From Bdellovibrio sp. (lineage in GTDB: Bacteria; Bdellovibrionota; Bdellovibrionia; Bdellovibrionales; Bdellovibrionaceae): DNA of 24,801 nucleotides. The position numbers and the translations under genes were made by a program. The DNA is taken from the NCBI GenBank assembly GCA_036676395.1, contig JAKFCY010000006.1:1-24801 (forward strand). Direction: 5' to 3'. Positions within the stretch are counted from its first letter, which is position 1, and each line of letters opens with the position of its first letter. Shown here in pieces: positions 1 through 22,669 of this stretch. The notes below the pieces were generated by a model. The model was not told the DNA's origin. It did not search any database and saw only the letters and a list, made by a program, of their open reading frames with translations.

Positions 1-9
1 TTTTGAAAT

Positions 10-50
10 TACGATGCTCTTCGTATAACTTTGATACGAAAGTAATCGTA
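10..50 (+). promoter_or_regulatory. Bacteroidota -7 promoter box (TAACTTTG, 26-33) flanked by two TACGA-N6-TCGTA palindromes (10-25, 35-50); probable BlaI operators
   Basis: Two identical-arm palindromes bracket a TAnnTTTG motif directly upstream of the repressor ATG at 60. Confidence 0.7.
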
Positions 51-59
51 CAACCTCCC

Positions 60-434
60 ATGAGCAAACCAACCGAAGCAGAATTAGAGATTCTTTCCCT
101 TCTCTGGGAACTGAAAGAAGCAAGCGTGAGACAGATTCACGAGCGACTCTCTGAGACCAAAGACACAGGCTATACCACTACGCTTAAGATCATGCAAATC
201 ATGCATGCAAAGGGAATGGTGAGCAGGGATGAAGAAAACAGATCACATATATACAGACCTGCCACCAACCAAAAAGAGACTCAGAAATCGCTTTTGAAAA
301 ATCTGGTGACTACAGCCTTTGGCGGCTCCGCGCAAAAGCTGGTGATGCAGGCCCTGGGACAGGAAAATCCTTCAAAGGTCGAACTGGATGAGATTCGCGC
401 ATTTTTAGACCAACTTGAAAACAACGCAAAATGA
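60..434 (+). CDS. BlaI/MecI/CopY family transcriptional repressor
   Basis: MSKPTEAELEIL..LW...SVR.IH...GYTTTLKIMQIM..KG winged-helix pattern; ATG at 60 preferred over TTG at 3; stop overlaps the M56 gene start. Confidence 0.93.
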   Translation: MSKPTEAELEILSLLWELKEASVRQIHERLSETKDTGYTTTLKIMQIMHAKGMVSRDEENRSHIYRPATNQKETQKSLLKNLVTTAFGGSAQKLVMQALGQENPSKVELDEIRAFLDQLENNAK

Positions 435-2377
435 AACTTTTGAACGACTGGATTCCTGAAAACCTTTTGTATGCGCTGGGCTGGACCCTGGTGCATTCTG
501 TCTGGCAACTCATTTTAATAGCTGGTTTACTATGGATCGCGCTTCGGATCGTACAGAGCAAAAGTCCTGACTTCAAGTACAAGTTGGCGCTTGGCGGAAT
601 GGGCTTGAGTTTGATCGTTGCGGTCGGGACTTTCTTTTATGAATACTCCCTTTTCAATCCTGTTTCCGCTCAAAATCTGAATGCATTTCAGGTGGTTTTC
701 CTGGATCAGTCTGCTGGTCCCCGGGAATTAAGCCTCGAAAGCAGCATTCAAAATCTGGTGAATTGGATTGAGATCCAATTACCCCTTCTGGTCAATATCT
801 GGTTTTTGGGAACACTCCTGTTCATGTTCCGTCTGGTCAATTGCCTTTCTGAACTTAGAACCATGCGTAAGGCTTCTTCCGAACCAAATGATTTTCAACT
901 GGAAAAAATGCTTTACCGACTTAGCGGAAAGCTTGGAATCGATAAGATACCGGCACTGCGGATCACGCAAGCCGGACAATCTCCCGTTACTTTCGGATTT
1001 CTCAAACCTATTATATTGATACCCGCCGGATTGATTTTTCATCTTTCACCGGCTCAGTTGGAAGCGATCATAGCACACGAACTCGCCCATGTGAAGCGAA
1101 ATGATTACCTCGCGAATTTGCTGCAATCCGGCCTGGAAGTGCTTTTCTTCTATCATCCTTGCTACTGGTGGATGAGTCAGACTGTCAAAGAATTGAGAGA
1201 AAATGCCGCTGACGATCTGGTTGTTCAGGCGGGAGTTTCCCCGAAAGAATTGGCATATGCCTTGGCTGAAGTTCTGAATTTTGCGAAGCAAAATCCTCCG
1301 GAACTCGCTCTTGCTGCAGGAAAACACAGAAATCCAACACTTCAACGAATCAAAAGAATGCTGGGCTATCCGGCACAAAATTATCCACAAAACCCTATTA
1401 TTTCACTACCCATGCTACTTACCCTACTTCTCAGCGCCGGCCTGATGGCCTCTGCGCAGCAGGACGTGCCGGCACCTGCAGAAAAAATCAAACCGCTCGC
1501 CGCGATTGCACCAGTTGAAAATCCAAAAGCAATCGCTGCGGTTTTCCCTATTGCAGCCACTGCGCCTGTCGCAGATACTGCTGACTCGAAAAAGGAAAAA
1601 AGAATAATCATCCTCGATGGTGATAGTCCCATGATTTGGAACAACTCCAATGGATCCGTTATCAAGATGGATGGAAAGGGGACTTACCGATTTGAAATCA
1701 AAGGGGACACTTTGATAACTGAAGATGATACCATTATCATTAATAGTGAATCTAATTATGTTTTCAGAGGTTCTCCGGATTTCAATTGGAGCGAGATGCC
1801 CGTTCTGGAATTAGCGGAGGCCCCGGTTTTTCCGGAAGGTTTTATGGCTCCGCCAGTCTTTCCGGTAGATATGTTTCCAGCTATGGCTCCTATAATGATT
1901 GAGCCTATGGTTGCGATGCCACCGATGGTTTTTGATTTTGATGGGGGGACTCCCGGTGCATTCCACTTCTCAGATACCACCAAAATGACTCCCGAGGAAC
2001 GTGAGAAATGGGCGAAGAAAACTGAAGAATGGGCTAAAATGGCCGAAATGAAAGCTGAGGAATGGGCGAAAAAAAGCGAGGAATGGGCGAAGGAATTTGA
2101 GCCAAAAATGAAAGAGTTTGAGCTCAAAATGAAAGAATGGGAAAAATCGAACGAACCCAAAATGAAGGAGTTTGAGATGAAAATCCAGGAATGGGAAAAA
2201 GCCCAGGGACCCAAAATGAAGGAATTCGAAGAAAAGATGAAAATCTGGGAAAAAGAGCAGCAACCTAAACTCGAAGAATTCCAGCGAAAAATGGAAGAGT
2301 GGCAGAAGGAGAATGCCAGGAAAATGGAAGAGTTCCAGCGAAAACTGGAAGAGGATTTTAAGAAAAAAGATAATTAA
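431..2377 (+). CDS. BlaR1/MecR1-like M56 family metallopeptidase signal transducer with a charged repetitive C-terminus
   Basis: N-terminal TM helices, P.TFG.LKP.IL.P, HELAH zinc motif, FFYHP..WW, RE..ADD; coupled to the BlaI-family gene. Confidence 0.92.
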   Translation: MKLLNDWIPENLLYALGWTLVHSVWQLILIAGLLWIALRIVQSKSPDFKYKLALGGMGLSLIVAVGTFFYEYSLFNPVSAQNLNAFQVVFLDQSAGPRELSLESSIQNLVNWIEIQLPLLVNIWFLGTLLFMFRLVNCLSELRTMRKASSEPNDFQLEKMLYRLSGKLGIDKIPALRITQAGQSPVTFGFLKPIILIPAGLIFHLSPAQLEAIIAHELAHVKRNDYLANLLQSGLEVLFFYHPCYWWMSQTVKELRENAADDLVVQAGVSPKELAYALAEVLNFAKQNPPELALAAGKHRNPTLQRIKRMLGYPAQNYPQNPIISLPMLLTLLLSAGLMASAQQDVPAPAEKIKPLAAIAPVENPKAIAAVFPIAATAPVADTADSKKEKRIIILDGDSPMIWNNSNGSVIKMDGKGTYRFEIKGDTLITEDDTIIINSESNYVFRGSPDFNWSEMPVLELAEAPVFPEGFMAPPVFPVDMFPAMAPIMIEPMVAMPPMVFDFDGGTPGAFHFSDTTKMTPEEREKWAKKTEEWAKMAEMKAEEWAKKSEEWAKEFEPKMKEFELKMKEWEKSNEPKMKEFEMKIQEWEKAQGPKMKEFEEKMKIWEKEQQPKLEEFQRKMEEWQKENARKMEEFQRKLEEDFKKKDN

Positions 2378-2396
2378 TTGTGTGTTGATGCTTTTG

Positions 2397-2429
2397 AAAA
2401 AGACCTGTCCGATGGGCAGGTCTTTTTTT
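2397..2429 (+). terminator. Rho-independent terminator (possibly bidirectional)
   Basis: AAAAAGACCTGTCC-GAT-GGGCAGGTCTTTTTTT hairpin with T tract just after the M56 stop. Confidence 0.88.
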
Positions 2430-2593
2430 AGGGCCTGGCGAATTCAAGGAGAGGTTGATGGCCCAATTTGTCAGCAGATTTTATTGCCGATAAATAGATT
2501 TCTCTCGCGATAAGGGTACTTGTATAGGTTTTTTCAATGATTCCTATGAATTAATGATGAAACATAGAATAAAAATACGCTTATCTATTATCC

Positions 2594-2702
2594 GACTGCA
2601 TAATAAGAGCCGTATGACAGGAGGCTGTCACAGCCTGTCCCGCTACTGCGGGGTACGGTTCTGTGAGAGGTTTAGGGGTGAGATTCCCCTTTACCTACCG
2701 AC
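2594..2702 (+). mobile_element. Group II intron 3' remnant (DV-DVI, AGC-triad lineage), DV interrupted by a small palindrome
   Basis: GAGCCGTATG...GTACGGTTC followed by TGTGAGAGG...CCTACCGAC; similar copy at 16805-16914; ends directly before TATGGGC, the cassette end. Confidence 0.8.
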
Positions 2703-3490
2703 TATGGGCAGGGTTTTTCTTGTAATTTTCCATAAATCGTTCCGTCAATATCAAACTGACTATGTCCATATTCAAGTCTTATTATTTTTCCGCAATTCAC
2801 TTGAATTACAAAAGCAAAATTTTCCATTGAGGCTGACATATTTCCTGAACCATTCTCAATATGGTCTAAAAAGCCTGGTAAAGCTTTTTTCAATGGTTCT
2901 ATTTCGTCTCCAACCTTGAATTTGGGAATTGTCTTAGCCACAATATTCTGTCGGATTTCGTCAGTCATAAAACGGTACACCAAATTTGGGGCAATAAGTG
3001 GCAAAAACCACAAGAAAAATCCTAGAATTATTATTGGTGAGAGGAAAAATATTGTCTTTGTTATAGGTCTTTGGTTCAGCAAGTCAATCAGTTTTTCGGA
3101 CTTTATTAAAAGCGAGTAGGCTAATCCGAAGAAAAGTCCGACTAGAATTGCTTGGGGCAAAAACATTGTCACTAACTCAAAACTTCGAAAAAGGCCACCT
3201 ACAATTATTGAATAAGTCAATGCTCCGTAAACTGTCGATAAAACGGTAAAAATTGGTGGTTTGAATAGTTTTTTTGAGTGGTCAAGTCGACTTAATGGCC
3301 AAATAATGAAAACTGACCACGCAATTGTTATAAAAAGTCCCGACCAAAAAATAATCACTCCACTATCGTCTGCTTTTCCGTCTTCTGAAACAAGGTAAAT
3401 TGAATTGAGTATGTTCATCAATGTCCAAGCTATGGTCATTGAGAAAAATCCAATTGTTTGTTTAACGTTATTTATTTTCAGTGTCGTCAT
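2702..3490 (-). CDS. Multi-pass membrane hypothetical protein (cassette gene)
   Basis: About 5 hydrophobic segments; start set at ATG 3490 because the longer ORF runs across the cassette boundary GCCCATAAC (3500-3508). Confidence 0.75.
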   Translation of the reverse strand: MTTLKINNVKQTIGFFSMTIAWTLMNILNSIYLVSEDGKADDSGVIIFWSGLFITIAWSVFIIWPLSRLDHSKKLFKPPIFTVLSTVYGALTYSIIVGGLFRSFELVTMFLPQAILVGLFFGLAYSLLIKSEKLIDLLNQRPITKTIFFLSPIIILGFFLWFLPLIAPNLVYRFMTDEIRQNIVAKTIPKFKVGDEIEPLKKALPGFLDHIENGSGNMSASMENFAFVIQVNCGKIIRLEYGHSQFDIDGTIYGKLQEKPCP

Positions 3491-3499
3491 TTTTACCTT

Positions 3500-3629
3500 G
3501 CCCATAACATCTCGCAAATACACGCAGGGCGTGAGTTTCCCGCTGAACTTCCTACGAAGAGCTGCATTTCAAATTTACTTCTTTCCTGTCAACGAAGCAC
3601 CGAAACCCAACTTGCGGGTATTTTGCGGT
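3500..3629 (-). repeat. attC-like recombination site, split by a group II intron
   Basis: GCCCATAAC, then imperfect inverted arms GCAAATACACGCAG / CTTGCGGGTATTTTGC, then GT|intron|TACAAGC. Confidence 0.72.
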
Positions 3630-4075
3630 GTGTGCCTTGAATGGTGAATATAGGTCAATTAGTTGATCGTTCCAACGGGTAAAATGCGAAGCATTCATGA
3701 ACACCATTGAATACAAATACTTCGTGAATAAAGTCCCTTTAGCACGGGGGTAATCCCGTAGGGAAGGGAAAGGCTGTTCCGAAGCTAAGCAAGTGGTGGC
3801 GGTAGCTATCGGCATGGTTTACCGCGAGAGGACTGAGCGTTAAGAAAATATCCTGTGGATATTTTTAGTGAGGGGCCAGGCTGCGGACCAGCCTCCTTTT
3901 CTGCCTACTACTATAACTTTGTCATGGCTGAGAAGAAAAGGGTATGAATCGATGCTATCCTACTACCTCAAAACGCAACCTACAATCCAGTGAACCGCCG
4001 TATACGAGACCCGTACGTACGGTGGTGTGAGAGGCGCACCTCGTCAGAGAAATCTGGCGAGGCCGTCTACTCGAT
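3630..4075 (+). mobile_element. Internally deleted group IIC-like intron (5' end, last 37 codons of the intron-encoded protein, intact DV/DVI)
   Basis: 5' GTGTGCC; AADQPPFLPTTITLSWLRRKGYESMLSYYLKTQPTIQ* at 3880-3993; short DV ACCGCCGTATACG...CGTACGGTGGT with CGC triad; ends CTACTCGAT. Confidence 0.88.
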
Positions 4076-4120
4076 TACAAGCTGGGCTTCTGTCTGTGTT
4101 TGTATGTTCGTCAATAGCTG

Positions 4121-4792
4121 TCAAGTTTTTCCTTTAATTAATTTGTCAAGCTCGTTCGCATAGTTAGCAAGAATTAAATTTACTTCTTTCATTGAAGTTA
4201 CAAGGTTCTCAAAGTCAGGATATTTCTTTTGCAGCTCTTGTGGAGAAAGTCTCTTATTAATTTCTTCTTCCTTTGCGTTTTCAAGCCACTTACGAAACTT
4301 TGCGTGGTGTTCTGTCAAGTGCGGACGCAAACCATCATTTAATATTTTTCTTGTCAAGCCAATTAGTGCTTTTGTTGGGTCGTGGTCTTTCAAATATCTA
4401 CCCGGAACTGTTTTAATTTCGTCTCTTATGATGTTGAATAGCTTATACCAAGAGTCATAAATCTCTTCAATGCTGTCATTATTTTCGTCAATAAGTATTG
4501 CCGCCTTTCTTGTAGTTAATTCAATGTGAATTCGATTAGCGATGTATAAATTGTCGTGGTTACGTTCAACTTTAAAAACCATTTTAGGAGTTCCAGAAAT
4601 TTCGACTTCTAAATTTTGCCACCTGAATAATTTTGAAAATTGTCTTTTCAAAATTATCAGAGCAATTATGATAGCTAATATAATCCCTATGAAAATCCAA
4701 TCACTAGAAATTATTAGGGAAGGTTGTTTTCTTTCAAAAGCAACTCGAATAAGTTCGTGTGTTGAAGTGGTGTCTGTCATAGTTATTGCCAT
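4121..4792 (-). CDS. Single-TM hypothetical protein; candidate effector of the TIR operon
   Basis: TM segment WIFIGIILAIIIALIIL then a helical domain (IELTTRKAA, YDSWYKLF, LNDGLRPHLT); start overlaps the upstream TIR gene. Confidence 0.8.
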   Translation of the reverse strand: MAITMTDTTSTHELIRVAFERKQPSLIISSDWIFIGIILAIIIALIILKRQFSKLFRWQNLEVEISGTPKMVFKVERNHDNLYIANRIHIELTTRKAAILIDENNDSIEEIYDSWYKLFNIIRDEIKTVPGRYLKDHDPTKALIGLTRKILNDGLRPHLTEHHAKFRKWLENAKEEEINKRLSPQELQKKYPDFENLVTSMKEVNLILANYANELDKLIKGKT

Positions 4793-5337
4793 TTGTCACT
4801 GGTTCTATTGTTCGCAAAGATTGGATATGAATTGTCGGGCGTAATCTTGTTCCTGTCCTCAAATGCTTTGTGTATCCAACCTTGAACTTCCGCTGGATTT
4901 TTAGACCATTTATATAATTGTGCAAATCTATTTTTTTCATCTTTCCAATTGTCATAAAGTCTTGGAGGAATTGTATGTGGGTCAAATTTATTGTCGTTTA
5001 AAGGGTAGCTAGGCATGAAAATACCTAATAACCCAGAACGTGAATTAAATTGTGTTTGTCTTATACTTGAGCCAATTTCCCAATCAACGTGTTTTCGTTG
5101 CCAAGTGTTGTTTCCAATAAGCACAATGGTTACGGTAGAATCTCTTAAATATTCATCTCTAATTTTTTGTCTGATAGTTTCAGTTTGTAAGTTGGGAGCA
5201 ATTTCACCAATTTGAACTGATTTACTTATCATTATTTGGTGATAGTTTGCGAATAGTGCCTCAAATTGATTGCGATAAGTTTGGTCAGGCTCCGTATGGT
5301 GATAACTTACAAATACCTTATGAATGTTTGTTGCCAT
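4783..5337 (-). CDS. ThsB-like TIR domain protein (MTH538/DUF1863 type)
   Basis: KVFVSYHH, DSTVTIVLIG..TWQRKHVDWEI with the catalytic-position Glu. Confidence 0.88.
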   Translation of the reverse strand: MATNIHKVFVSYHHTEPDQTYRNQFEALFANYHQIMISKSVQIGEIAPNLQTETIRQKIRDEYLRDSTVTIVLIGNNTWQRKHVDWEIGSSIRQTQFNSRSGLLGIFMPSYPLNDNKFDPHTIPPRLYDNWKDEKNRFAQLYKWSKNPAEVQGWIHKAFEDRNKITPDNSYPIFANNRTSDKWQ

Positions 5338-5341
5338 ATTT

Positions 5342-5884
5342 TTAAAGTTTAAATCCTAAAAAGTTTATTGAATTACTTTCCTCACGTTCACGAGAATTAT
5401 TTATTTTGTATGCGTTATTAGTCCTGTTCCAGTAAGCATAGTTTACCTTGCTTTCAAAATCTCTTTCTAAATTTTCCCATTTCATACTAACTGCATATCC
5501 AGATTTTATATTGTCGGCTAATCTGTCAGGTACAGAATGACTGTCAGTTGGTAGGAAGATTGCCAAAAGCCCATTTGGCTTAAATGATTTCAAGGGGTCG
5601 TATGGATGGGTGTAACTTCGCAGGGATGCCCAAATCTCCCAGTCTATCCATTTTCGATATCCTGTTCTTGAACCAACTAAAACAACGGTCACGGAGCAGT
5701 TCCTCATTTTCTCACGAACCTTCTTATAAATTGTTTCATCTGTCAAGTGTCCAATGTCGTCTTTTAAAGAGTAGTCAGCCACTCTCATATTCGTAATGGT
5801 CTTGCGAAGTTTTGTCAAATATTTTTGGTCGTTGTCGTGATGGTAGCTCACAAAACAATTTCGTATTTTCTTTTCTATTGGCAT
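5342..5884 (-). CDS. ThsB-like TIR domain protein (MTH538/DUF1863 type)
   Basis: CFVSYHH..D, CSVTVVLVG..TGYRKWIDWEI. Confidence 0.88.
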   Translation of the reverse strand: MPIEKKIRNCFVSYHHDNDQKYLTKLRKTITNMRVADYSLKDDIGHLTDETIYKKVREKMRNCSVTVVLVGSRTGYRKWIDWEIWASLRSYTHPYDPLKSFKPNGLLAIFLPTDSHSVPDRLADNIKSGYAVSMKWENLERDFESKVNYAYWNRTNNAYKINNSREREESNSINFLGFKL

Positions 5885-6367
5885 TTATGAAGTAATTATT
5901 GCGTCCATAACGCCACTTAACGGGTGTACTGAACTACTATAGTTAGAAAACATTTTTCTTTCAAGAATAAGTTGTTTCTCTTGTCCTTGCTTCTTGATAA
6001 ATTCATTTATATCGTAAATATCTCGAATTATGGGTTTTGTTTTGATGTAATCAGGAAGGTCTGAATTTTTTATTCCTTTTAAAGTTAATGTTGCTAGGTC
6101 TGTTACATCATAGCCGTATCCAACTTCAAATGGAACCCATTTGGAAATCAATGTATTTGGAGAAACAATACAAAGCATATGTGTCGAACTTTTAATTCCT
6201 TTTTTAATGGCCGCAACAACAGCTTTAGGGTCGTTGTTTATGTCTGCTTGTTGTAATTCTTTATCAAACTCATCAAAGTAAACTGCTATGCCAACTGATA
6301 TTAAATAGTCAGCAATTTTTTTTGCCTCGTCTCTGTCACGTTTTTGGTGGCTTATAAATACTTTCAT
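5885..6367 (-). CDS. TIR domain protein (TIR_2-like)
   Basis: MKVFISHQ..D, VYFD, I..S.HMLCIVSPNT..SKWVPFEVG; ATG at 6367 (alternative TTG at 6376). Confidence 0.87.
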   Translation of the reverse strand: MKVFISHQKRDRDEAKKIADYLISVGIAVYFDEFDKELQQADINNDPKAVVAAIKKGIKSSTHMLCIVSPNTLISKWVPFEVGYGYDVTDLATLTLKGIKNSDLPDYIKTKPIIRDIYDINEFIKKQGQEKQLILERKMFSNYSSSVHPLSGVMDAIITS

Positions 6368-6412
6368 TTTTGTCAATAGTGTTTAATTGTTGATGTGTCG
6401 TCTGTTAGCCTT

Positions 6413-6547
6413 GCTTGTAACGTTTTGCAGCTACCTGAAGGGCGGGATTTTTACCACAAAACTACATTTGAAAAACTAATGTTTGTTTAACCACAAAACT
6501 GTCTTTGGAACACGAAACCCCGGCTTTTGGGTAGGTGCTGTTGCACT
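6413..6547 (-). repeat. attC-like site
   Basis: GCTTGTAAC-GTTTTGCAGCTACCTGAAGGGCGGG ... CCCGGCTTTTGGGTAGGTGCT-GTTGCACT; imperfect inverted arms around an AT-rich loop. Confidence 0.78.
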
Positions 6548-6798
6548 AAACCTGCGGTAGTTTCATATTCAATCTAAAATTTCTACTTTAGGTACGCTTA
6601 CGGTTCCAGATTTTAAAATTTTAACATTTGTAACCATCTGAAAGTCAAGCATTTGATTTTTTTTATTTTATGCGAATTTTTATAATTTAAATCACTGATT
6701 TTCAATTTCTTATAAGATTTTTCAATAGCGACGAAAAACCCATATATAAGGTGTCTCAATTCCGGTTCCCCCGAAAAAATCGGGGCAGGCAGTGCAAC
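6540..6798. other. Gene-less (non-coding) cassette
   Basis: Bounded by complementary GTTGCACT (6540-6547) and AGTGCAAC (6791-6798); no credible ORF inside. Confidence 0.62.
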
Positions 6799-6851
6799 AG
6801 CGGTTTCAATGTCCGTGCTACGCACTCGACGAAAACCTAGTTGTTATGTGC
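6791..6851 (-). repeat. Short attC-like site (about 50 bp between cores)
   Basis: AAC-AGCGGTTTC...GAAAACCTAGTT-GTT; a closely related right half recurs at about 10742-10772, 14699-14729 and 19401-19431. Confidence 0.7.
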
Positions 6852-6876
6852 TGGCATTGTATTAGGTTTCAACATG

Positions 6877-7422
6877 TCATACTCTATTTTTAACAATCAA
6901 TACTTCTTTTCCACTACCGTCTTCACCAATAAGGTATACTATTTTCATGTCTTTGTTTACGTTATTATAAACAACTCTTTTAAAACCCATTCTATGTTTA
7001 TTCTTTTCAAGTGGTTTTCCCCATAAAATTGTAAAATAAAAAGCAATAGTTCCATATTCAGAGGTTTCCATTGATATTGTGCCTTTCCATTGGTGATCGA
7101 TTTTTTCCGTATAATTATCGTGCATAGTTTGTTTGTGTGTAATTTCTAATTTGTTTTTTCTCAAATATTTAATTTCAGCCTCACCCATTGGTTTGTTGAA
7201 ATCAATTTCATCACCTTCTTTATCGATCCAATAGATGTCATATTTATTAGAAAGATTATTGAATTTTAAATAGGGTATCAGGATTTCTGTTATTAGTAGA
7301 ACAATACCTGTAGCAACAAGCGAAGTTATTATTGGTACTAGTAGTCCATCGGTTATGAAGCTTGAATCTTCGGTAATTGGAAAATATTCGCACCAAAGGG
7401 GAAAAAGATTTTTCATGTACAT
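6877..7422 (-). CDS. Hypothetical protein, N-terminal TM plus beta-rich domain
   Basis: TM LLVPIITSLVATGIVLLITEILI, then alternating beta-strand patterns; only gene between GTTATGTGC and GCACATAAC. Confidence 0.75.
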   Translation of the reverse strand: MYMKNLFPLWCEYFPITEDSSFITDGLLVPIITSLVATGIVLLITEILIPYLKFNNLSNKYDIYWIDKEGDEIDFNKPMGEAEIKYLRKNKLEITHKQTMHDNYTEKIDHQWKGTISMETSEYGTIAFYFTILWGKPLEKNKHRMGFKRVVYNNVNKDMKIVYLIGEDGSGKEVLIVKNRV

Positions 7423-7448
7423 AAATGTCTTGTGTTGGTTTTATGCTT

Positions 7449-7581
7449 GCACATAACGTTTTGCGGCTAAAAGAAGTGGCGGCTTTGGAACACTAAACCT
7501 TCTATACACACACTGTTTATTAATTGCACAACTGTTTATACTTGCACTTCTCCCGCCATTTTTTTAGGTGCTGTTATGAGC
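7449..7581 (-). repeat. attC-like site
   Basis: GCACATAAC-GTTTTGCGGCTAAAAGAAGTGGCGG ... CCGCCATTTTTTTAGGTGCT-GTTATGAGC. Confidence 0.8.
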
Positions 7582-7586
7582 CGTTT

Positions 7587-8231
7587 TTATATCAATCCTT
7601 TGTCTATTAGAAATTGTGTTTTAAACATTGAAAATTCTTTATCAGATTTTGCATTATCTATTATTTCGTCAAGAAGAATAGCTTGAAGTCCCACTGTTAG
7701 TTCTCGTGTATACTTGTCAATTAAATTTTGAAGTTCCTTTAATGCATCAGAACGCCTTTCAATTAGTTCTTTTCTGTTTAATTTTATTTCCTTCCATGTC
7801 AGCTCTCCTCTTTTACTGTCATTAATATGGAACAACATTGGGCCAAATGCCTGTAAATGTAAATCAACATCATCTTTATAAGGATTCAAAAGTTTACAAT
7901 TTTTATCTAATGTCGTTCTCTTATTGTTATTGCACCAATAACAAACAAATGATAAGTTATTCCAAGAAAATGTTAAACGTGGATAAACTGATTTAGGAAT
8001 TATATGTTCAACATCACCAGGATATTGATGAGTGATAAAACACTCGCAGTAAATACATTTTTCCTCTGTCTCAATCTTTACTTCAGTCTTAATGTCCGCA
8101 TGTCTGTAATGAGCTTGAACATGCGTTGGAACAGGTAGTCCAGAATTAATGAAACCCATTAATTGTTGTGTCCAATTTGGTCCGTTTACTAATAGAACGT
8201 TTGGTGCTGGTCTCTTTAATCGCTTTATCAT
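7587..8231 (-). CDS. HNH endonuclease, PtuB-like
   Basis: KCIYCE...DVEHIIPKS.YP.L.F.W.NL...C..CN..K, LLNPY.DD; 4-nt overlap with the ATPase gene. Confidence 0.87.
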   Translation of the reverse strand: MIKRLKRPAPNVLLVNGPNWTQQLMGFINSGLPVPTHVQAHYRHADIKTEVKIETEEKCIYCECFITHQYPGDVEHIIPKSVYPRLTFSWNNLSFVCYWCNNNKRTTLDKNCKLLNPYKDDVDLHLQAFGPMLFHINDSKRGELTWKEIKLNRKELIERRSDALKELQNLIDKYTRELTVGLQAILLDEIIDNAKSDKEFSMFKTQFLIDKGLI

Positions 8232-9475
8232 TTCTTTTTACTTTTTTCAATTAACGTTGCAACTGAAGTAGAAACATATTTATCTAGCCCTACTTTTTTA
8301 ATGTCAGACTTGAAGGATAAGATATTCTCTGGAGTAATACCAGAATCACTGTATTTTGTAATTATTTTGTCAAGTTCTTCGTCTACCCATTCAGGCATAG
8401 TTGTTTCAATCCCTAACACTTCCCTAAGAATGTCATTAGCGCTTCCAGATTTTTCAATATTTTCAAGAAGAATTGAGTCTACTTTACCATTAGCATTGTA
8501 ATTCAAAACAAAAACATTTGAGTCAGGAACTGAACTTATAATAAATGGATTATGAGTCGCAATAATAAATTGTACGTTTGGAAATGCTTTTAAAAAGTTG
8601 GGCAGAAGAGATTTTTGCATCTCAGGATGCAAATGATTTTCAGGCTCGTCTAATGTTACAACATATTCTTTTTGAGGTTCCTCAAACATATAAAGTTGCC
8701 AAGCAAGGTCTATAATTGAAGCTATTCCTCCAGAAACTGCATCTAAAGAGAAGTCTCCTGATCGAGTTATTAAAACTACTTCAGGTATTCGAATTGCTAT
8801 TTTCTCAAATCCTAACTTTGGAGGAAGGATTATTTTTAAAATTTCTTCAAATCCTCTAAAAATATTAACTGCCTCGCTATTTCTAATTACTACTTCATTT
8901 CCAAAGCCAAATGTTGCAAGTGAAATTAAAGTTTCCTTAATATGGTAGTTCTCGAATTTACCCCCACCACTTTGATACCGATTTACTTTTGCTTGATTAT
9001 ATTGGTTGTAAGCTTGTTGCTTTGTTATTACTTGGGTTGAAATATTTGAAATAGGTTGATATTTATAAACAGGTCTATGAGAAGGAATATGGAGGCCTTT
9101 TACAGCCTGCTGACCAGTGTAATTCAGATTATATGTTGTTCCTACTACTGCCGGAACGGTCAATTTGCATACTTTATCACCAACGTATTCTATGCTGCCA
9201 ACTTCAATATGATTATTTGGAATTTTGTCAATGTCATTTGAGTTGTCAAAAAGGGTTTTCCACATATCAGAGAAGAATTTCAACCCACCAGTTTTTTCAT
9301 CTCTAGTTGGTGTTCCAACGATTTCAGAAGGCCAGCCAAAATGTCGATTAACAGTATTCAATATAGTTGTTTTGCCAGCACCATTCGCACCAGTAAGTAT
9401 TGTCAGCCTTTTGTGAAAATCAATTTGAATATTTTCAAATTGCCTCCAATTTTTTATTGTTACCGATTTGAACAT
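8228..9475 (-). CDS. ABC/AAA ATPase, PtuA-like
   Basis: Walker A GANGAGKTT, signature VSGG, Walker B/D-loop LDEPENHLHP, H-loop IATHNP; likely start MFKSVTIKNWRQF at 9475. Confidence 0.88.
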   Translation of the reverse strand: MFKSVTIKNWRQFENIQIDFHKRLTILTGANGAGKTTILNTVNRHFGWPSEIVGTPTRDEKTGGLKFFSDMWKTLFDNSNDIDKIPNNHIEVGSIEYVGDKVCKLTVPAVVGTTYNLNYTGQQAVKGLHIPSHRPVYKYQPISNISTQVITKQQAYNQYNQAKVNRYQSGGGKFENYHIKETLISLATFGFGNEVVIRNSEAVNIFRGFEEILKIILPPKLGFEKIAIRIPEVVLITRSGDFSLDAVSGGIASIIDLAWQLYMFEEPQKEYVVTLDEPENHLHPEMQKSLLPNFLKAFPNVQFIIATHNPFIISSVPDSNVFVLNYNANGKVDSILLENIEKSGSANDILREVLGIETTMPEWVDEELDKIITKYSDSGITPENILSFKSDIKKVGLDKYVSTSVATLIEKSKKK

Positions 9476-9551
9476 TAGTTGTGTTTTTTGTTTAAAGTTG
9501 GTTAATCCAATTTTGTTATAAAACAATTATTTATCCCTGAAGTATTTTTTG

Positions 9552-9959
9552 CTACTCTCCGTGCATAAGATAATTAATCCCATCAAGCAGTATTTTAACC
9601 CCGCCTTTAGAATTTATATGAAACATAAAATTTACAACGTCATCATATTTAATAGAAGAATTTTTGTCAAACCATACTTTGCCGATTGTTAGACTTGAAT
9701 TATTTGTCGTTATAGTGAACATTAAAGGAGACTTTGATTTACCTTCTACAATTCGAATATATTCAATTGGTTCTTTAAAGTTTTCAATAAATATTGGTTT
9801 AAGGAACATTGCCAAGTTATATGGGCTTTGTCCATATTCTGAAAATATTTGTTGCATATTGCCCTTGTTAATTTCAGTAGCTTGAAATTCCATTGAAATA
9901 ATTCCGTTTTCAAATTCAAGTTTTGAAATGCTTCTGATGAATAATCCTCTTGTTATCAT
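9552..9959 (-). CDS. Hypothetical protein
   Basis: 135-aa ORF, co-oriented and immediately upstream of the ATPase; no recognisable motif. Confidence 0.6.
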   Translation of the reverse strand: MITRGLFIRSISKLEFENGIISMEFQATEINKGNMQQIFSEYGQSPYNLAMFLKPIFIENFKEPIEYIRIVEGKSKSPLMFTITTNNSSLTIGKVWFDKNSSIKYDDVVNFMFHINSKGGVKILLDGINYLMHGE

Positions 9960-9974
9960 AGTTTGTCTTTTTAA

Positions 9975-10772
9975 AATTCTGACTAACGAACCTCAAAAGT
10001 CTTAAAAATTTCAGCTGTTTTGAGGCCCAGAGCGTCTTCGGTGAGACCGTCCCGTAAGTTACGGGATGCTTCTTTGTCCTTTTAACTAATCCCAGCTTTC
10101 TTTTCTGATCCGGAAAAAGTTATCCTTCGGGGTTGATATCGGCAAGAAAGGGATTTTTAGGAACAAAAAAATACCCTGTACAGGGTATTTTTAGGCGTAA
10201 TAACTGGAAAACTGAAGGTTTTTGAAGAGAGTGGCCGTTTGAATCCGAGCTGTGCTTTAACCCGCATTATGCATTAGCATTTCTATTGCGGGCTAAAATT
10301 GCTTTAAAATCAGACACTTCGCTGCTGTTTTCGACTTCACTATAGCGGTGCTATGCCTCAGTCTCCAAACAGCCTGATTTTCTTGCTATTTTAACCCTTC
10401 CCGATAAAAATCGGGACAGGCTATAACGAAGCCTAATGCAAAATCCGGGTTTAAGTTCCGGGAAATAAAAATCCTAAAAGAGAGGTTAATACTGATTCTT
10501 GGGACTTGCTATCTGCGGGATTGTAGGTCGAAAATGGGGTATAATTGCACTTTTCGATTTCAAGAAATCTCAGGGTTCATGGGGGCAACTTGCTCCGGAA
10601 TCTCCAGGACTTACTAATCAATTTTTTAAAGTCTTACCAACACAAAAAGAACCCAAAATCTTACCCAATCCCCATAAGCACCTCATCGTTCCGATGGTAA
10701 TCGGGAAGCGCTTTCATTGTTCCCGCCGCAGCGGGCAAGCTGTGCTACGAACGCAACGAAAACCTAGTTGTT
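9975..10772. repeat. Long non-coding repeat, copy A (longest)
   Basis: Shares sequence with 14289-14729 and 19176-19431; begins AATTCTGACTAAC and ends in the short attC-like half GAAAACCTAGTTGTT. Confidence 0.85.
10260..10450. mobile_element. MITE with ACCC-starting terminal inverted repeats (IS982-like ends) and a TTA duplication
   Basis: ACCCGCATTATGCATTAG ... CTAATGCAAAATCCGGGT; the empty site GCTTTAAGTTCCGGG is present in repeat copy B near 14406-14420. Confidence 0.82.
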
Positions 10773-10786
10773 AGCTGCTGATGCTA

Positions 10787-11407
10787 TCAAATCCATAGTG
10801 AAAAAACATAAAATAAAGTCGCAAGCCCAAAAAATAATGCTTGAAATCTTGGAAAACGCCAAGAAATAGTCCCAAGGGTAAAGGAAAATTCTCGCAATGA
10901 ATTGAATTTATTTAATGTGTGCTCGTTTGTTTTTACTTCCAAAGATTCTGTCTTTGTTAGCAAGTCAATTTCGATAAATATTACTTTGAAAATTGCATAA
11001 ATTCTTTTCCGTAAACTCGGGTAGGGGAATTCTGTCGCAGGCAAGACTGCTGCTTTAGGATTCTCGGGTGTTATTCTCTTTTCATTCTCTGTATAAAATC
11101 TCTGGCGAGTCAATGAAATATTTCTTGTGATTCTAAAGTCGTAAAGTCGAGTTACGAGTACTGTCATTCCATATATTATCGCAATTGTCAGAAATATTAG
11201 GGCAAAAAAATGTAAAGTCAAGGACCAATCAATTTTGCAAGAACATAAGCAAAATCTCATGTTAAAAAAAACATTCTTGTCAAAGCAAAATGCAAGCAGT
11301 CCAATTGAAATTGTCAGCATAAAATTGTTTGCTGCCGACAACTGGTTTATTGCTTGGTCTTGCCAGTGCCTATGCCTTTCGATATAATTGCTTTCTGTGT
11401 CCGTCAT
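10787..11407 (-). CDS. Membrane hypothetical protein (about 3 TM)
   Basis: Three hydrophobic segments; 4-nt overlap with the upstream gene. Confidence 0.75.
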   Translation of the reverse strand: MTDTESNYIERHRHWQDQAINQLSAANNFMLTISIGLLAFCFDKNVFFNMRFCLCSCKIDWSLTLHFFALIFLTIAIIYGMTVLVTRLYDFRITRNISLTRQRFYTENEKRITPENPKAAVLPATEFPYPSLRKRIYAIFKVIFIEIDLLTKTESLEVKTNEHTLNKFNSLREFSFTLGTISWRFPRFQALFFGLATLFYVFSLWI

Positions 11408-12042
11408 TGTTTTTTACACTTACTAAATTCAGTCTTCTTCCAAACTTCCCAACCCTTATTGTTGTCTGGGTTGAATGGAAGTGTCCTTGGATATTGATGA
11501 TGATAAAAAACAAGCATCTCATTTTTACTTTCATCCCAAGATAGTTCAAGTTTGCCATAATGTCCAATGAAACTGACTCCTTGAATGTAACGGTAATTTC
11601 CTTTGCCCGATTTTTTGTCTTTAGGATTGAATTCAACAAAACCAACCGCCTTACCGTTTTCGCTTTTCCAGTAATTAATGTTTAATAAAAATTCGTGTCC
11701 GCCCTGATAGGTTATAGATATTAAAAGTCCAATATTGTCTGCTCTCTGCGGTGCAAGATTGTCGTCAGAAGTATTGTCCTGGCCCATTTCAATTCTCTCG
11801 TAGCAACCGTGATAATTTGAATAATATTCAAATAGTCTGCTTTGTTCATGTTTTCTTTCAAGGTAAAGCACAAGGATAGTTGCAATAACTCCTCCGGCAA
11901 GTCCTGTTACTATTGAAAAAATGGTCGGATAAGCAATAGTTAAACAGTTCGCAAAGAGTTCTGCACTCGCTGAGGCGAATATTATTAGAATTGAAATAAT
12001 TAATCCAATTCTCTCCCATTTTTCTATCGTTGTCGGTCTCAT
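11404..12042 (-). CDS. 2TM plus beta-rich domain hypothetical protein
   Basis: Two N-terminal hydrophobic helices, then beta-strand-rich C-terminus. Confidence 0.75.
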   Translation of the reverse strand: MRPTTIEKWERIGLIISILIIFASASAELFANCLTIAYPTIFSIVTGLAGGVIATILVLYLERKHEQSRLFEYYSNYHGCYERIEMGQDNTSDDNLAPQRADNIGLLISITYQGGHEFLLNINYWKSENGKAVGFVEFNPKDKKSGKGNYRYIQGVSFIGHYGKLELSWDESKNEMLVFYHHQYPRTLPFNPDNNKGWEVWKKTEFSKCKKQ

Positions 12043-12049
12043 TGCATTT

Positions 12050-12180
12050 GCAGCTAACGTTTTGCAGCTACCCGAAGGTGGCGATTTCGGAGCGATTCAC
12101 TGTCAATATACCACAGACTTTTATAGTTGCACAAAGCTTCAATTAACCACTGAACTCGCTTTTTTGCCAAACGCCTGTGT
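12050..12180 (-). repeat. attC-like site (chimeric arms), split by a group II intron
   Basis: GCAGCTAAC-GTTTTGCAGCTACC...; the right part matches the site at 22850-22898; followed by an intron 5' end. Confidence 0.7.
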
Positions 12181-12746
12181 GTGTGCCTTGAATGGTGAAT
12201 ATAGGTCAATTAGTTGATCGTTCCAACGGGTAAAAGGCGAAGCATTCATGAACTGGATAATCTGGACTAAAGTGAGCCACCTATTGAATACAAATACTTC
12301 GTGAATAAAGTCCTTTAAGCACGGGGTAGTCCCGTAGTGACGGGACAGGCTGTCCCGAAGCCAAGCAAGAGGTGCCGATATCTATCGGAATGGTTTACTG
12401 CGAGAGGACCGAGCGTTAAGAAAATATCCTGTGGATATTTTTAGTGAGGGGCCAGGCTGCGGACCAGCCCCCTTTTCTGCCTACGACTATTACTTTATCA
12501 CGCCTGAGAAGAAAAGGGTATGAATCGATGCTATCCTACTACCTCAAAACGCAACCTACAATCCAGTGAACCGGATTGGTGGTCAAGATCATCGGATTCT
12601 ACACTTAGGATCAATTTAGCGAAGTGCCGGAACGTATCCCGAAAGCTTTCGGGAGTGGTCTGCCTTCGGCAGATAAATGTGAGACTGTGCGCGCCGTGGC
12701 GTAGGCGCACCTCGTCAGAGAAATCTGGCGAGGCCGTCTACTCGAT
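12181..12746 (+). mobile_element. Internally deleted group IIC-like intron, DV disrupted
   Basis: Near-copy of 3630-4075 at the 5' end, protein tail and DVI (..GGCCGTCTACTCGAT); DV replaced by palindrome-rich sequence after GAACCG. Confidence 0.85.
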
Positions 12747-12756
12747 TATGCATATT

Positions 12757-14162: not shown

Positions 14163-14288
14163 TTACCTCTTCCGAAAACGAAATCTCCATTTGTCAGAAA
14201 AGGGAAAGAGGACCACGGGCGAGTAAGGAAGCAATCTCTTCATTTAGGAGATTGATTAGCCATAGGAATACCGGAGTAGTTTAGTTAC

Positions 14289-14729: not shown

Positions 14730-14770
14730 GTGCGATCGCTTTCTTTCACTTCACTCTTTAGCTTCAATTA

Positions 14771-19460: not shown

Positions 19461-20069
19461 TTATAAATCAATTGTCCTGAAAGTTAAGTTTATTCTTGGT
19501 TCGATTATTAGCTTTGTCGGGGGAAGTCTGTGTAGCCAATTTGTTTGGGTATTGTCTTTCATTACCAATAAACTACCGTGTTCTAAAATTAATGAAATGG
19601 TTTCTTTCGTTTCTTTGTGTTTGAAGGCAAATTTGCGTTCTGCTCCAAAACTTAACGAACCAATTGCTCCATTTTTCTTTAAATCTTTTTCTGCATCGCT
19701 ATGCCAAGCCATTCCTTCATCACCATTGTGGTATAAGTTGAGTAAGCAGGAATTGAATTTTTCGCCTGTTATTTCTTCCGTAAGTGATTTTAATTCTAAT
19801 AATTCCCTTGTCCAGGGTAAGGCTCGTTTTGTGGTGTTAGAATAGGTGTATTCAAAATTAGTATCACCATGCCAAGCTACTTTCCGTTTTGTAATTATTA
19901 GTTTTCCATAGATAATAGCCTGATCATTTTTCCACTCGATTGTATTCATTAAACAGTCGAAATAATGATTTGCCTCTTTGTTGGGCAATAGTTTTCCGTA
20001 ATAATTTACAACACCATCTTTGGGCAGTAAGTTTTTTGAGCCGTCTATTTTGTTATCGAATAAATCCAT
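19461..20069 (-). CDS. alkB: AlkB family alpha-ketoglutarate-dependent dioxygenase
   Basis: FNSCLLNLY..G..GMAWHSD (HxD), W.H.LP, RINLTFR. Confidence 0.92.
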   Translation of the reverse strand: MDLFDNKIDGSKNLLPKDGVVNYYGKLLPNKEANHYFDCLMNTIEWKNDQAIIYGKLIITKRKVAWHGDTNFEYTYSNTTKRALPWTRELLELKSLTEEITGEKFNSCLLNLYHNGDEGMAWHSDAEKDLKKNGAIGSLSFGAERKFAFKHKETKETISLILEHGSLLVMKDNTQTNWLHRLPPTKLIIEPRINLTFRTIDL

Positions 20070-20296: not shown

Positions 20297-21016
20297 CTAA
20301 CTCAAAGCATCGTGAAAAATAATTCCCAGAGTGTGTCGCTCTCCACTATGGATTTCACTTACTCCATGTTTCATATTTACACGATAGTATCCTTTACTAC
20401 CTTTTACCGGTCTAAAGTTAGTTGTAAAAATCAGCATATCGCCTTTCATTGGTTTTAATACTATTGCTTTTGATTGTGCTCTTGGCGTTTGTTGGGTTAA
20501 TACAAATTCTCCACCTGTAAAATCTTGATCCGGCTCGTTTAAAAATAAAACGGTTTGAATTGGAAAATATACATCTCCATACAAATCTTGATGCAGGGTA
20601 TTGTGTCCGCCTTTACCATATTTCAAAATTAAAACGGTTGCTTTTGTTTGGTTATTTTCATTACACTGTTTCAGAAGATCCTGAAGTGTATCAGGAAAAA
20701 GCGTAGCGATATTTAGCACTTTCATCCAGGCGTTTGCAATTGGTGCAAGTTTGGGATATATGCTTTCTCTAATGCTTTGAATTAAATTAGGCAATGGATA
20801 ATTGAAATATTTGTATTCACCCAAGCCAAAACGGTAGCGTTCCATCACTACCGTTTTTCTGTAAGCATTTGGATTGTTATAATTCCTTATCAATTCGGTA
20901 CATTGCTCGTTTGTTAAGAGTTTTGGAATTATAGCAAACCCTTTTGCGTGCATTTCTTCAACTATATTTTTCCAGTCAATTGAGGCTATTTTTTCTTTTA
21001 CTTCAATATCTGTCAT
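20297..21016 (-). CDS. 2OG-Fe(II) oxygenase (DUF2086-like)
   Basis: LHQDLYG, FTGGEFVL, HGVS....GERHTLGIIFHDA. Confidence 0.88.
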   Translation of the reverse strand: MTDIEVKEKIASIDWKNIVEEMHAKGFAIIPKLLTNEQCTELIRNYNNPNAYRKTVVMERYRFGLGEYKYFNYPLPNLIQSIRESIYPKLAPIANAWMKVLNIATLFPDTLQDLLKQCNENNQTKATVLILKYGKGGHNTLHQDLYGDVYFPIQTVLFLNEPDQDFTGGEFVLTQQTPRAQSKAIVLKPMKGDMLIFTTNFRPVKGSKGYYRVNMKHGVSEIHSGERHTLGIIFHDALS

Positions 21017-21792: not shown

Positions 21793-21812
21793 TAAAACCC
21801 GAAACTTGCTAA
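21793..21812. promoter_or_regulatory. 20-bp motif TAAAACCCGAAACTTGCTAA, copy 1 (candidate regulator box)
   Basis: Identical to 22706-22725; about 50 nt upstream of the hydrolase start. Confidence 0.6.
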
Positions 21813-22669
21813 ATTAATTCTGAATGTGTTTTTGTTCCTTCCCAACCTATGATGGCTGTTTTTCTTGTATTTCCCCACATATACCCGCCAATTACTCCTG
21901 TAGATTGTATTACACGATGACAGGGAATTAAGAACGCAACAGGATTGCTTCCAATGGCAGTTCCTACTGCTCTTGAAGCATTTGGCTTCTCAATTTTATT
22001 GGCAATAGTTCCATAGGTTGTAAGCTGTCCCATTGGAATTTTTAAAAGTGTTTGCCATACTTTTAGTTGAAAATCAGTTCCTTTTAAGTGCAGTTTTATT
22101 TGATTCAATTTTGTCCAATCGTGTCTGAAAATGTATAGTGCATTTTGCTGAATTAAATCTACCATTTGTTTGTATTGAGCATTGGGAAAATGACTGAGCA
22201 TTGTTGGCAGTGCAACAGATTCATCATCGGAAAATGCCATATAACAAATTCCTTTTTCTGTTGATGCCACTAAAATGTTTCCAAAAGGGCTTTCTGCAAA
22301 GCTGTAATTTATAGCTAAATCTTTTCCGCCATTTTTATATTCGGCAGGTGTCATACCTTCTATGTTGATAAACAGGTCGTGTAAACGACCTGTGCCTGAA
22401 AGTCCAGTTTCGTGTGCCGTTTCAAAAAGTGTTGCTTGATTTTCTTTTAATAAAGTTTTAGCGTATTCTACGGTTGTATATTGCAAAAATTTCTTTGGAC
22501 TTGTTCCTGCCCATTCGCTAAAGAGCCGTTGAAAATGAAATGAGCTTAGATGAACCTTCTTTGCAACTTCGTCAAGATTGGGTTGCTCTTTAAAGTTTGT
22601 TTTTATATACTCAATTGCTTCAGCAATTCTTTTATAATTGATATTTTGTTGTTCGGTCATTGTATTCAA
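21809..22669 (-). CDS. ada: Bifunctional AraC-HTH / methylated-DNA-protein-cysteine methyltransferase (Ada-like)
   Basis: HFQRLF..WAG.SPK HTH; GTDFQLKVW, ASRAVG.A...NP, IPCHRV active site. Confidence 0.9.
   Translation of the reverse strand: MNTMTEQQNINYKRIAEAIEYIKTNFKEQPNLDEVAKKVHLSSFHFQRLFSEWAGTSPKKFLQYTTVEYAKTLLKENQATLFETAHETGLSGTGRLHDLFINIEGMTPAEYKNGGKDLAINYSFAESPFGNILVASTEKGICYMAFSDDESVALPTMLSHFPNAQYKQMVDLIQQNALYIFRHDWTKLNQIKLHLKGTDFQLKVWQTLLKIPMGQLTTYGTIANKIEKPNASRAVGTAIGSNPVAFLIPCHRVIQSTGVIGGYMWGNTRKTAIIGWEGTKTHSELI

Follow-up and report, generated by a model that had tools for sequence, protein, structure and literature searches.

What do three different TIR genes do when they are packed against a single gene for a small membrane protein that no family model names? 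This question is raised by a stretch of 24,801 nucleotides from Bdellovibrio sp. (assembly GCA_036676395.1, contig JAKFCY010000006.1, positions 1 to 24,801 of the forward strand), here called the window, where four such genes lie side by side on the minus strand. We consider that these genes probably make up a Thoeris-type system whose effector, the membrane protein, is activated by signals from the TIR proteins. From first to last on their strand, the genes are:

5885..6376, minus strand: TIR1, TIR-domain protein of the 'SHQKRD ... WVPFE' subtype, 163 amino acid residues (aa) from a TTG start at 6376; an ATG lies at 6367
5342..5884, minus strand: TIR2, ThsB-type TIR protein of the 'SYHH ... 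WIDWE' subtype, 180 aa
4783..5337, minus strand: TIR3, ThsB-type TIR protein, 'SYHH ... HVDWE', 184 aa
4121..4792, minus strand: transmembrane (TM) protein, proposed signal-activated effector, 223 aa, or 219 aa from the ATG at 4780

The first-pass annotation of the locus had described three different TIR genes, each with the conserved glutamate, packed tightly with a 223-aa protein bearing a single membrane helix, and this description was borne out. By the coordinates of the open reading frames (ORFs), 0 nt separate TIR1 from TIR2 and 4 nt separate TIR2 from TIR3. The overlap of TIR3 with the TM gene is 10 nt; when the TM gene is counted from its second ATG, there is a gap of 2 nt instead. The second methionine (4780) is the start in most homologues of the TM protein, which gives the length of 219 aa. 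Scans for sigma-70 promoters and terminators gave counts equal to those of shuffled sequences (14 versus 13.6).

All three TIR proteins exceeded the Pfam cut-offs for ThsB_TIR or TIR_2. TIR1 matched TIR_2 (PF13676) at 1.1e-12 and ThsB_TIR (PF08937) at 1.8e-7, while TIR2 and TIR3 matched ThsB_TIR at 7.7e-19 and 1e-19, respectively. The ThsB models of PADLOC were also matched by all three, with values of 5.4e-15 for TIR1 and 2.4e-12 for TIR2, and the PADLOC model PDC-M50B was matched by TIR2 (6.5e-13) and TIR3 (3.3e-10). The strings WVPFE, WIDWE and HVDWE of TIR1, TIR2 and TIR3 are of the W-x-x-[WF]-E type. When TIR proteins of the window and of related loci were aligned, the motif glutamate was invariant in 20/20 sequences, as was an N-terminal F-x-S motif. 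Two TIR domains of known structure, 8btn and 7uxr, aligned with TIR1 so that this glutamate falls on their W..E; for TIR3, a sequence and profile search of the solved structures in the Protein Data Bank (PDB) found no relative. We take the conserved glutamate of the three proteins to be the catalytic residue.

The TM protein was then compared with family models, but no match was obtained in Pfam or PADLOC at E-values up to 10, nor in NCBIfam at E-values up to 1. The annotation had seen no SIR2, SLOG, Macro or caspase motif in it; hidden Markov models (HMMs) gave no match to any of these, nor to DUF2270 or SLATT, and no model of a described effector was matched. A single hydrophobic helix spans residues 32-55. 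An AlphaFold2 model built from an alignment of 77 sequences had a predicted local distance difference test (pLDDT) of 93.1 and a predicted template-modelling score (pTM) of 0.79, compared to a pLDDT of 71.4 when a shallower alignment was used. In this model, a beta-hairpin (15-30) is followed by the membrane helix (32-55), a second hairpin (58-76) and a helical bundle (79-220) with long helices at 79-94, 108-127, 138-175 and 194-220. A Macro domain is an alpha/beta sandwich and SLOG has a Rossmann-like alpha/beta fold, whereas the strands predicted here are limited to the two short hairpins. Foldseek searches of the PDB with both models returned nothing at E ≤ 0.001, and sequence and profile searches of the solved structures found no relative, only designed coiled coils at E ≥ 0.003.

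The helical core is the best conserved part of the protein. Its mean column conservation was 0.54, compared to 0.23-0.32 for the N-terminus, the membrane helix and the hairpin, and eight residues (R95, K96, D106, R123, N152, R156, L159 and T160) were invariant in 77 family sequences. The stretch before the membrane helix has a median length of 20 residues and the lowest conservation of the protein (0.23). Lysines and arginines averaged 0.97 before the helix and 3.62 after it, and they were in excess after it in 96/106 family members. The bundle is therefore predicted to be cytoplasmic, where the products of the TIR proteins arise, with the N-terminus outside and the C-terminus inside. The scores for a predicted complex of four copies were 0.50, 0.36 and 0.30, with a median of 0.36 where the mark is 0.42 and with controls at 0.00; they weigh neither way.

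Is the membrane protein a regular partner of TIR genes? A word-indexed search found 542 homologues, and an exhaustive profile search found 558 representatives, clustered at 50% identity, at E ≤ 0.001, among them 146 at E ≤ 1e-30. No homologue was found in 50,697 phage records. The gene neighbourhood was analysed in 57 loci with a family member, taken from species-representative genomes, and a TIR gene was counted when it lay within 2.5 kb of the family gene. With all methods combined, 48 of the 57 loci were TIR-linked; 46 of these were found by a local TIR HMM, one by Pfam (L052) and one by PADLOC (L019). Searches by phmmer with the three TIR proteins of the window alone still gave 43/57. Among loci with at least 1.5 kb of sequence on both sides, the linkage was 42/46, or 43/46 when L019 is included. 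The TIR gene lay within 100 bp of the family gene in 32 loci, and 70 of the 71 TIR genes counted were on the same strand. The annotation had named such a linkage of the homologues as a test of its reading, and the same-strand linkage was indeed found across phyla. In the genome of the window, the TM gene is present in a single copy and the only three PF08937 matches are those in TIR1, TIR2 and TIR3. Since these three genes account for every match in the genome and the family is TIR-linked in 48/57 loci, the grouping of the four genes is more than chance.

The related loci share a common layout, in which one to five TIR genes of differing subtype are followed by a single family gene. By the local TIR HMM, 30 loci had one TIR gene, 10 had two, 5 had three and 1 had five. 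On an Aureispira plasmid, a deoxyribosyltransferase-like gene and four annotated TIR genes precede the family gene. A TIR3-like gene lies immediately upstream of the family gene in most related loci (−9 to +13 nt), and near-identical copies of TIR2 adjoin family genes in L001, L002 and L004. Different loci combine the TIR types differently, while the TM protein keeps 62-95% identity across records titled as Bacteroidota, Comamonadaceae, Saccharibacteria and Deltaproteobacteria; many of the titled records that hold the family are Bacteroidota. Restriction-modification, Abi and HEPN genes flank relatives of the unit.

The membrane part of the protein can be replaced. Among the best 150 representatives, 105 had one TM helix before the core, 2 had two and 43 had none; the latter comprised fragments and some 20 proteins that begin with a soluble domain of 150-170 aa. 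Loci with this soluble form (L019, L020, L022 and L052) have kept a TIR gene. Fused forms of 411-2000 aa were not found, which counts as weak evidence by the search tool's own account. Because a conserved core is joined to interchangeable N-terminal parts, it looks like a sensor module. A homologue on a Bacillus cereus plasmid (245 aa) has two hydrophobic N-terminal stretches in its translation, adjoins, downstream, a 288-aa TIR gene and matched nothing in Pfam or PADLOC.

Two further arrangements were seen in the related loci. Directly upstream of the family gene of L015 (2863-5739) lies a 958-aa fusion of ParA-like, Roc, COR-A, COR-B and TIR domains, a large NTPase-type TIR sensor that stands in for the small ThsB proteins. 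Directly after the family gene, L001 (6663-7142), L004 (3334-3813) and L012 (6670-7107) encode a small protein of 145-159 aa in which three hydrophobic stretches can be seen by eye. The copy in L001 weakly matched the PADLOC model PDC-M50A (1.1e-4), and in L004 and L012 a further small TIR gene comes after it. This M50A-like protein has no counterpart in the window, where an intron-like element follows the family gene instead.

How could the four proteins work together? In the mechanism that we propose, the three differing ThsB-type TIR proteins would serve as phage sensors, each of which would convert nicotinamide adenine dinucleotide (NAD+) to a signal derived from ADP-ribose (ADPR) when the cell is infected. 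The TM protein, anchored by its single N-terminal membrane helix, would be the effector common to all three; we infer this role from the gene architecture. Its cytoplasmic bundle, with a polar and basic set of residues (R95, K96, D106, R123, N152, R156, H158 and T160), may bind the signal, and binding would then lead to self-association and to a change at the membrane helix. The membrane would be damaged or depolarised and the infected cell stopped, and protection against phage would presumably follow. Defence genes in the neighbourhood, a Septu pair near the unit and others around relatives, speak for this proposal. The proposal is supported by published precedents, since the membrane effectors of Thoeris types II, V, VII and some of type VI are thought to oligomerise on signal binding, according to the excerpts of the preprint by Yirmiya et al. 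(2025, bioRxiv 10.64898/2025.12.03.692087) on which we draw here and below.

Several observations weigh against this proposal. The predicted fold of the TM protein is a generic helical bundle without a recognisable nucleotide-binding fold. No TIR gene was found in 9/57 loci; 5 of these 9 have less than 810 bp of upstream sequence, whereas three (L016, L039 and L042), with flanks of 1.5 kb or more on either side, are true exceptions on the available sequence. In 11/57 loci it is Nmad2 and not a TIR gene that precedes the family gene, in operons that are DS-4-like, and the validated DS-4 unit of Escherichia coli consists of five proteins, none of them a membrane protein in the passages of the source that deal with it (DefensePredictor, PMC13092281). 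Because of these 11 loci and of a DS-4 unit without a family gene, the trigger of the TM protein may not be an ADPR-type signal, or the protein may be accessory. Yirmiya et al. (2025) warn in addition that the TIR protein may be an NAD-depleting effector in TIR operons that have not been verified.

The warning leads to an alternative in which the roles are reversed. The TIR proteins would be effectors that deplete NAD+, as TIR domains do in CBASS, Pycsar, pAgo and Avs contexts (Yirmiya et al. 2025), and the TM protein would be an envelope sensor, an anchor or a regulator that switches them on upon DNA injection or membrane stress. Such envelope events could be sensed by the short N-terminal stretch, whose predicted place is on the outer side of the membrane. 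This alternative fits less well, because the outer segment is short and least conserved while the cytoplasmic core is the most conserved part. Several divergent TIR proteins for each partner are also better explained by many sensors that act on one effector than by one sensor that acts on redundant effectors, and the forms without a TM helix are still TIR-linked. We therefore regard a reversal of roles as unlikely and keep the TM protein as the proposed effector.

The loci with an Nmad2 gene raise the question of which molecule the TM protein would respond to. They fall into two sets:

L018, L023, L029, L030 and L036: full DS-4-like set, family gene last
L006, L007, L012, L013, L026 and L055: other DS-4-like loci where Nmad2 precedes the family gene

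The full set has the order 5-hydroxymethyldeoxyuridine (5-hmdU) DNA kinase, thymidylate-synthase-like gene, Nmad1, ThsB_TIR, Nmad2 and family gene. In L026, a gene resembling deoxynucleoside monophosphate (dNMP) kinases lies between Nmad2 and the family gene, and in L005 and L008 MazG/MazG_C or HMUDK genes come after the family gene. DS-4-like operons thus have a member of the family either as their last or as their first gene. The DS-4 validated in E. coli combines thymidylate synthase, dNMP kinase, 5-hmdU kinase, a ThsB-like TIR/NDT protein (NDT, nucleoside deoxyribosyltransferase) and Nmad2, and its TIR protein was assigned by HHpred to a cytidine monophosphate (CMP)/hydroxymethyl-CMP hydrolase, as stated in the same passages (PMC13092281). 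The small TIR protein of DS-4 belongs to ThsB_TIR, the Pfam family also matched in the window, and elsewhere the enzymes of DS-4 are found in operons that have a TM-family gene at the end. Unlike DS-4, the window has no thymidylate synthase, kinase or Nmad gene among its scanned ORFs.

From these operons one could argue that the TIR-like proteins are nucleotide-processing enzymes, as annotated for DS-4, and that the TM protein is an exporter, an immunity factor or an effector for a modified pyrimidine nucleotide or nucleoside released by TIR/NDT-like N-glycosidases, not for an ADPR signal. Besides the 11 loci, five of them with the full set, the MazG/MazG_C or HMUDK genes of L005 and L008 and the composition and hydrolase assignment of DS-4 speak for this explanation. 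However, the unit in the window carries no nucleotide-modification genes, 37 of the 48 TIR-linked loci have TIR genes only, the validated DS-4 does without such a membrane gene, and a single-pass protein is unlikely to be a transporter unless it is oligomeric. As a whole, this explanation appears very unlikely to us.

The TM family occurs in plain multi-TIR as well as in DS-4-like operons, and its ligand could therefore be something other than an ADPR isomer. In the boldest form of this idea, the core (about residues 79-220) would be an unnamed receptor domain for a TIR-dependent molecule, wired either to a membrane helix, for cell arrest, or to a soluble domain; the ligand might be a pyrimidine nucleotide processed by a TIR/NDT-like enzyme, and the unit would travel as an integron-type cassette. 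We hold this combination to be rather unlikely. If it were true, a receptor with a pyrimidine ligand would link Thoeris signalling to the chemistry of nucleotide hypermodification; the DS-4-like link by itself suggests that TIR/NDT-like enzymes together with a receptor of the TM family may use chemistry beyond the ADPR isomers.

We then asked which of the known systems the proposed Thoeris-type unit resembles. It is not type I, as none of the 11 proteins encoded from 2702 to 12042 gave a SIR2 or SLOG match; the two SIR2_2 matches of the genome are on other contigs (C110 and C125). On the evidence of HMMs and of the predicted secondary structure, types II, III and V do not apply either. Type II consists of ThsB and a membrane effector with a Macro domain that responds to histidine-ADPR (Yirmiya et al. 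2025; PMC13434031). As in the window, a TIR gene adjoins the gene of a small membrane-anchored protein with a cytoplasmic domain that is proposed to bind the signal, and membrane damage by oligomerisation is expected (Yirmiya et al. 2025; PMC13434031). In contrast to type II, the window has three TIR proteins, and its TM protein has one membrane helix instead of two, and hairpins with a helical bundle instead of a Macro domain. Macro did not match the TM protein at E ≤ 10, nor was it among the 25 most-matched families listed for 26 members (searched at E ≤ 10) and 150 members (E ≤ 1) of the family. With type III, where several TIR genes accompany a SLOG effector (Yirmiya et al. 2025), the window shares several differing TIR proteins and one effector, but this effector has no SLOG match by HMM and its strands form only two short hairpins.

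Types V (ThsF/DUF2270, three TM helices) and VII (ThsH/SLATT, two TM helices) have TIR-linked membrane effectors as well, and these are predicted to form rings with basic signal pockets (Yirmiya et al. 2025). The TM protein differs from both in having one membrane helix and a large soluble bundle, not a mainly membrane-embedded body. Neither DUF2270 (PF10028) nor SLATT matched it at E ≤ 10 or appeared among the families listed for the members, for SLATT by HMM only. The PADLOC candidate system PDC-M50 pairs a small membrane protein (M50A) with a TIR protein (M50B). The pairing is like that in the window, and TIR2 and TIR3 match M50B; the TM protein, however, has no PDC-M50A match even at an E-value of 10. 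The effector of type IX, ThsJ, comes from B. cereus VD021 (Yirmiya et al. 2025). A search of genome contigs with the B. cereus plasmid homologue described above found one locus, in Bacillus fungorum, and does not decide whether the TM family is that of ThsJ.

The closest call is type VI, which consists of ThsB and ThsG with 2'-cyclic ADPR as the signal; the effector ThsG is a DUF6650 domain of about 150 aa of unknown function, and some ThsG proteins carry N-terminal TM helices (Yirmiya et al. 2025). The helical core of the TM protein could be a very divergent DUF6650 domain behind an N-terminal membrane helix, and the unit a multi-TIR variant of type VI. When residues 58-223 were compared in the ESM Atlas, the nearest named clusters were DUF6650, with scores of 0.81 and 0.80 and 175 and 172 shared features, and the ten best named matches were all DUF6650; scores below 0.9 are leads only according to the tool. 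With the whole protein, a cluster with DUF6650 on 13% of its members ranked 16th (0.77). Alignments by hhalign repeatedly paired the hairpin and the first helix of the two families ('..N....IA..I..EL.TRK' versus '..P....A.R.I..LEDRR'), and the DUF6650 HMM gave 104 weak, mostly colinear matches on 270 family members at E ≤ 10, compared to 20 on reversed sequences.

None of these comparisons reached significance. The hhalign probability was 0.16-1.35% with a best E-value of 0.038, and the best E-value of the cross-HMM search with the 270 members was 0.2. The Pfam model (PF20355) did not match the TM protein of the window even at E ≤ 10, and DUF6650 was absent among the 25 most-matched families listed for the 26 and 150 members. 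The invariant residues of DUF6650 (G12, P16, W22, H114, W118 and G125) have no evident counterparts among those of the TM family. The likeness to type VI thus lies in a TIR partner of a domain some 150 aa long, in protein-language features that make DUF6650 the closest family with a name, and in one short motif in colinear order, while significant sequence or profile matches are lacking and the invariant residues differ. In addition, the excerpts of Yirmiya et al. (2025) call type VI rare in Bacteroidota, to which many of the titled records of the TM family belong. From the sequence comparisons, a distant kinship with DUF6650, and with it a place in type VI, seems possible but doubtful.

The annotation had called the TM protein the effector of a possibly undescribed Thoeris-type system. 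Its observations were confirmed and its interpretation was largely right, as no known effector model matches the TM protein, the family is TIR-linked and the four genes lie between repeated junction elements. As a whole, however, the interpretation is only partly supported: the excerpts of Yirmiya et al. (2025) count 29 TIR-linked effector types, of which 18 are unverified, the DUF6650 lead has to be considered, and the part of the TM protein as effector, and not as sensor or anchor of NAD-depleting TIR proteins, is read from the gene architecture. The preprint was the only literature found on the later Thoeris types. No paper was found that describes the TM family in words, in a search that did not extend to the figure and the supplementary tables of effectors in the preprint. 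The family is nameless in Pfam, PADLOC and NCBIfam, and whether it is absent from print cannot be said.

It is now the effector that defines a Thoeris system, and up to now every new one has come with a new signal molecule or a new mode of stopping the cell. The TM family is large, with 558 representatives in records titled as many different phyla, and it is among the most consistently TIR-linked genes. The TM protein is a compact and confidently modelled test case, with one helix and a bundle, eight invariant residues and natural variants that lack the membrane helix. A natural cassette with three differing TIR sensors is also well suited to the mapping of phage specificity.

Do the four genes also form a unit by their borders? 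The annotation had placed the ends of the cassette at 4076 and 6421, and these positions coincide with repeated junction elements. The elements that border the genes are:

6405..6462, minus strand: 5' junction element of the TIR unit (repeat D9), 58 nt, ending 29 nt before the start of TIR1
4078..4120, minus strand: 3' junction of the TIR unit, 43 nt after the stop of the TM gene, ..ACATACAAAC..
3625..4077, plus strand: group II intron-like element of about 450 nt, opposite to the genes, without a reverse-transcriptase ORF

The 5' element contains the exact 11-mer TAACGTTTTGC at 6418-6428 on the plus strand, which reads ..GCAAAACGTTACAAGC.. on the strand of the genes. Copies of repeat D9 are found at 3492-3549, 6405-6462, 7441-7498 and 12042-12099, in every case a short way ahead of the gene with which a unit begins. 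The 11-mer occurs three times in the window (6418, 7454 and 12055), and the copy at 3492-3549 has diverged. At the other end, ..ACATACAAAC.. resembles by eye the ..TAACAAC.. element after the stops of other units, and a '..TAACAACTAGGTTTTCGT..' element follows the stops of four other units at 6815-6858, 10742-10785, 14699-14742 and 19401-19444. The position of the four genes between repeated cassette-junction elements supports the view that they are one mobile unit.

The intron-like element matched Rfam RF00029 at 3993-4075 with 41.7 bits, compared to a gathering score of 40. Its 3' end with domains V-VI borders directly on the stop of the TIR unit, and another minus-strand unit has the 3' end of a second copy at its stop. 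Other copies and part-copies are at 12179-12761, 15632-15972 and 22894-23100 (plus strand); only the copy at 3625-4077 reaches the gathering score. A full group II intron with a reverse transcriptase was considered and rejected, as no such ORF was found on the plus strand of 2300-4075; a hydrophobic minus-strand ORF of 273 aa that looks like a real gene fills 2702-3523. Group II introns of this kind target attC sites in the opposite orientation. An attC-type site is an imperfect hairpin with ..AAC / GTT.. ends. The junction between PtuB and the neighbouring gene orf181 (7440-7580, plus strand) can form a long imperfect hairpin with GTTATG...CATAAC ends (z −1.84; 11 of 200 shuffles fold as well), while two short junction pieces folded alone did no better than shuffles.

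No intact integron integrase was found on the 33-kb contig, only a 78-aa fragment with a stop in the window (14061-14180). On another contig of the genome, C50, a 382-aa tyrosine recombinase (L073:1110-2258) scored 218.7 bits with the integron integrase model TIGR02249 (cut-off 265) and 230.2 bits with NF040815, the model for tyrosine recombinase/integron integrase (cut-off 220). Pieces of the intron-like repeat are present on C50 as well. The two families of junction repeats, one ahead of first genes and one behind last stops, together with the hairpin suggest attC-like sites. Taken together, the array looks like an integron-type cassette array with remnants of attC-targeting group II introns. 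Such a setting would extend the idea that integron-type arrays are stores of defence systems.

The neighbouring units were also inspected. A Septu system lies 1.2 kb upstream of the TIR unit, with PtuA at 9526..8228 (minus strand, PADLOC 1e-165) and PtuB, with an HNH domain, at 8231..7587 (minus strand, 1.6e-66). A 135-aa ORF without a family match (9959..9552, minus strand) precedes PtuA and appears to belong to the same unit between junction elements. The gene orf181 (6877-7422, minus strand) encodes 181 aa with an N-terminal hydrophobic stretch by eye and is the only gene of its unit between junction elements; Pfam gave no match, and PADLOC only a weak one to the model PDC-M57B (0.0074). 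It was rejected as a part of the TIR unit, as it is beyond the junction element and as no ORF of the 57 related loci matched it at E ≤ 1e-3. Further upstream, two overlapping ORFs of 212 and 206 aa at 10787-12042 (minus strand), with hydrophobic stretches by eye and no Pfam or PADLOC match, are a candidate defence pair.

A repeated intergenic element of up to about 780 nt that ends in '..TAACAACTAGGTTTTCGT..' was found at 10007-10785, 14284-14737 and 19206-19439, and it gave 47 short BLAST matches over many contigs of the genome. To the left of the array (3-2377, plus strand), a BlaI-like repressor (Penicillinase_R, 4.9e-26) is encoded together with a 648-aa sensor protease of the BlaR1/M56 type, whose C-terminal part contains tandem coding repeats of 54 nt (2099-2314). 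A minus-strand cluster at 19461-22669 resembles an alkylation-damage response, with an Ada-like AraC/methyltransferase (21809..22669), an alpha/beta hydrolase, a 2-oxoglutarate (2OG) oxygenase of the 'Oxygenase-NA' type (20297..21016) and an AlkB-like 2OG-Fe(II) oxygenase (19461..20069).

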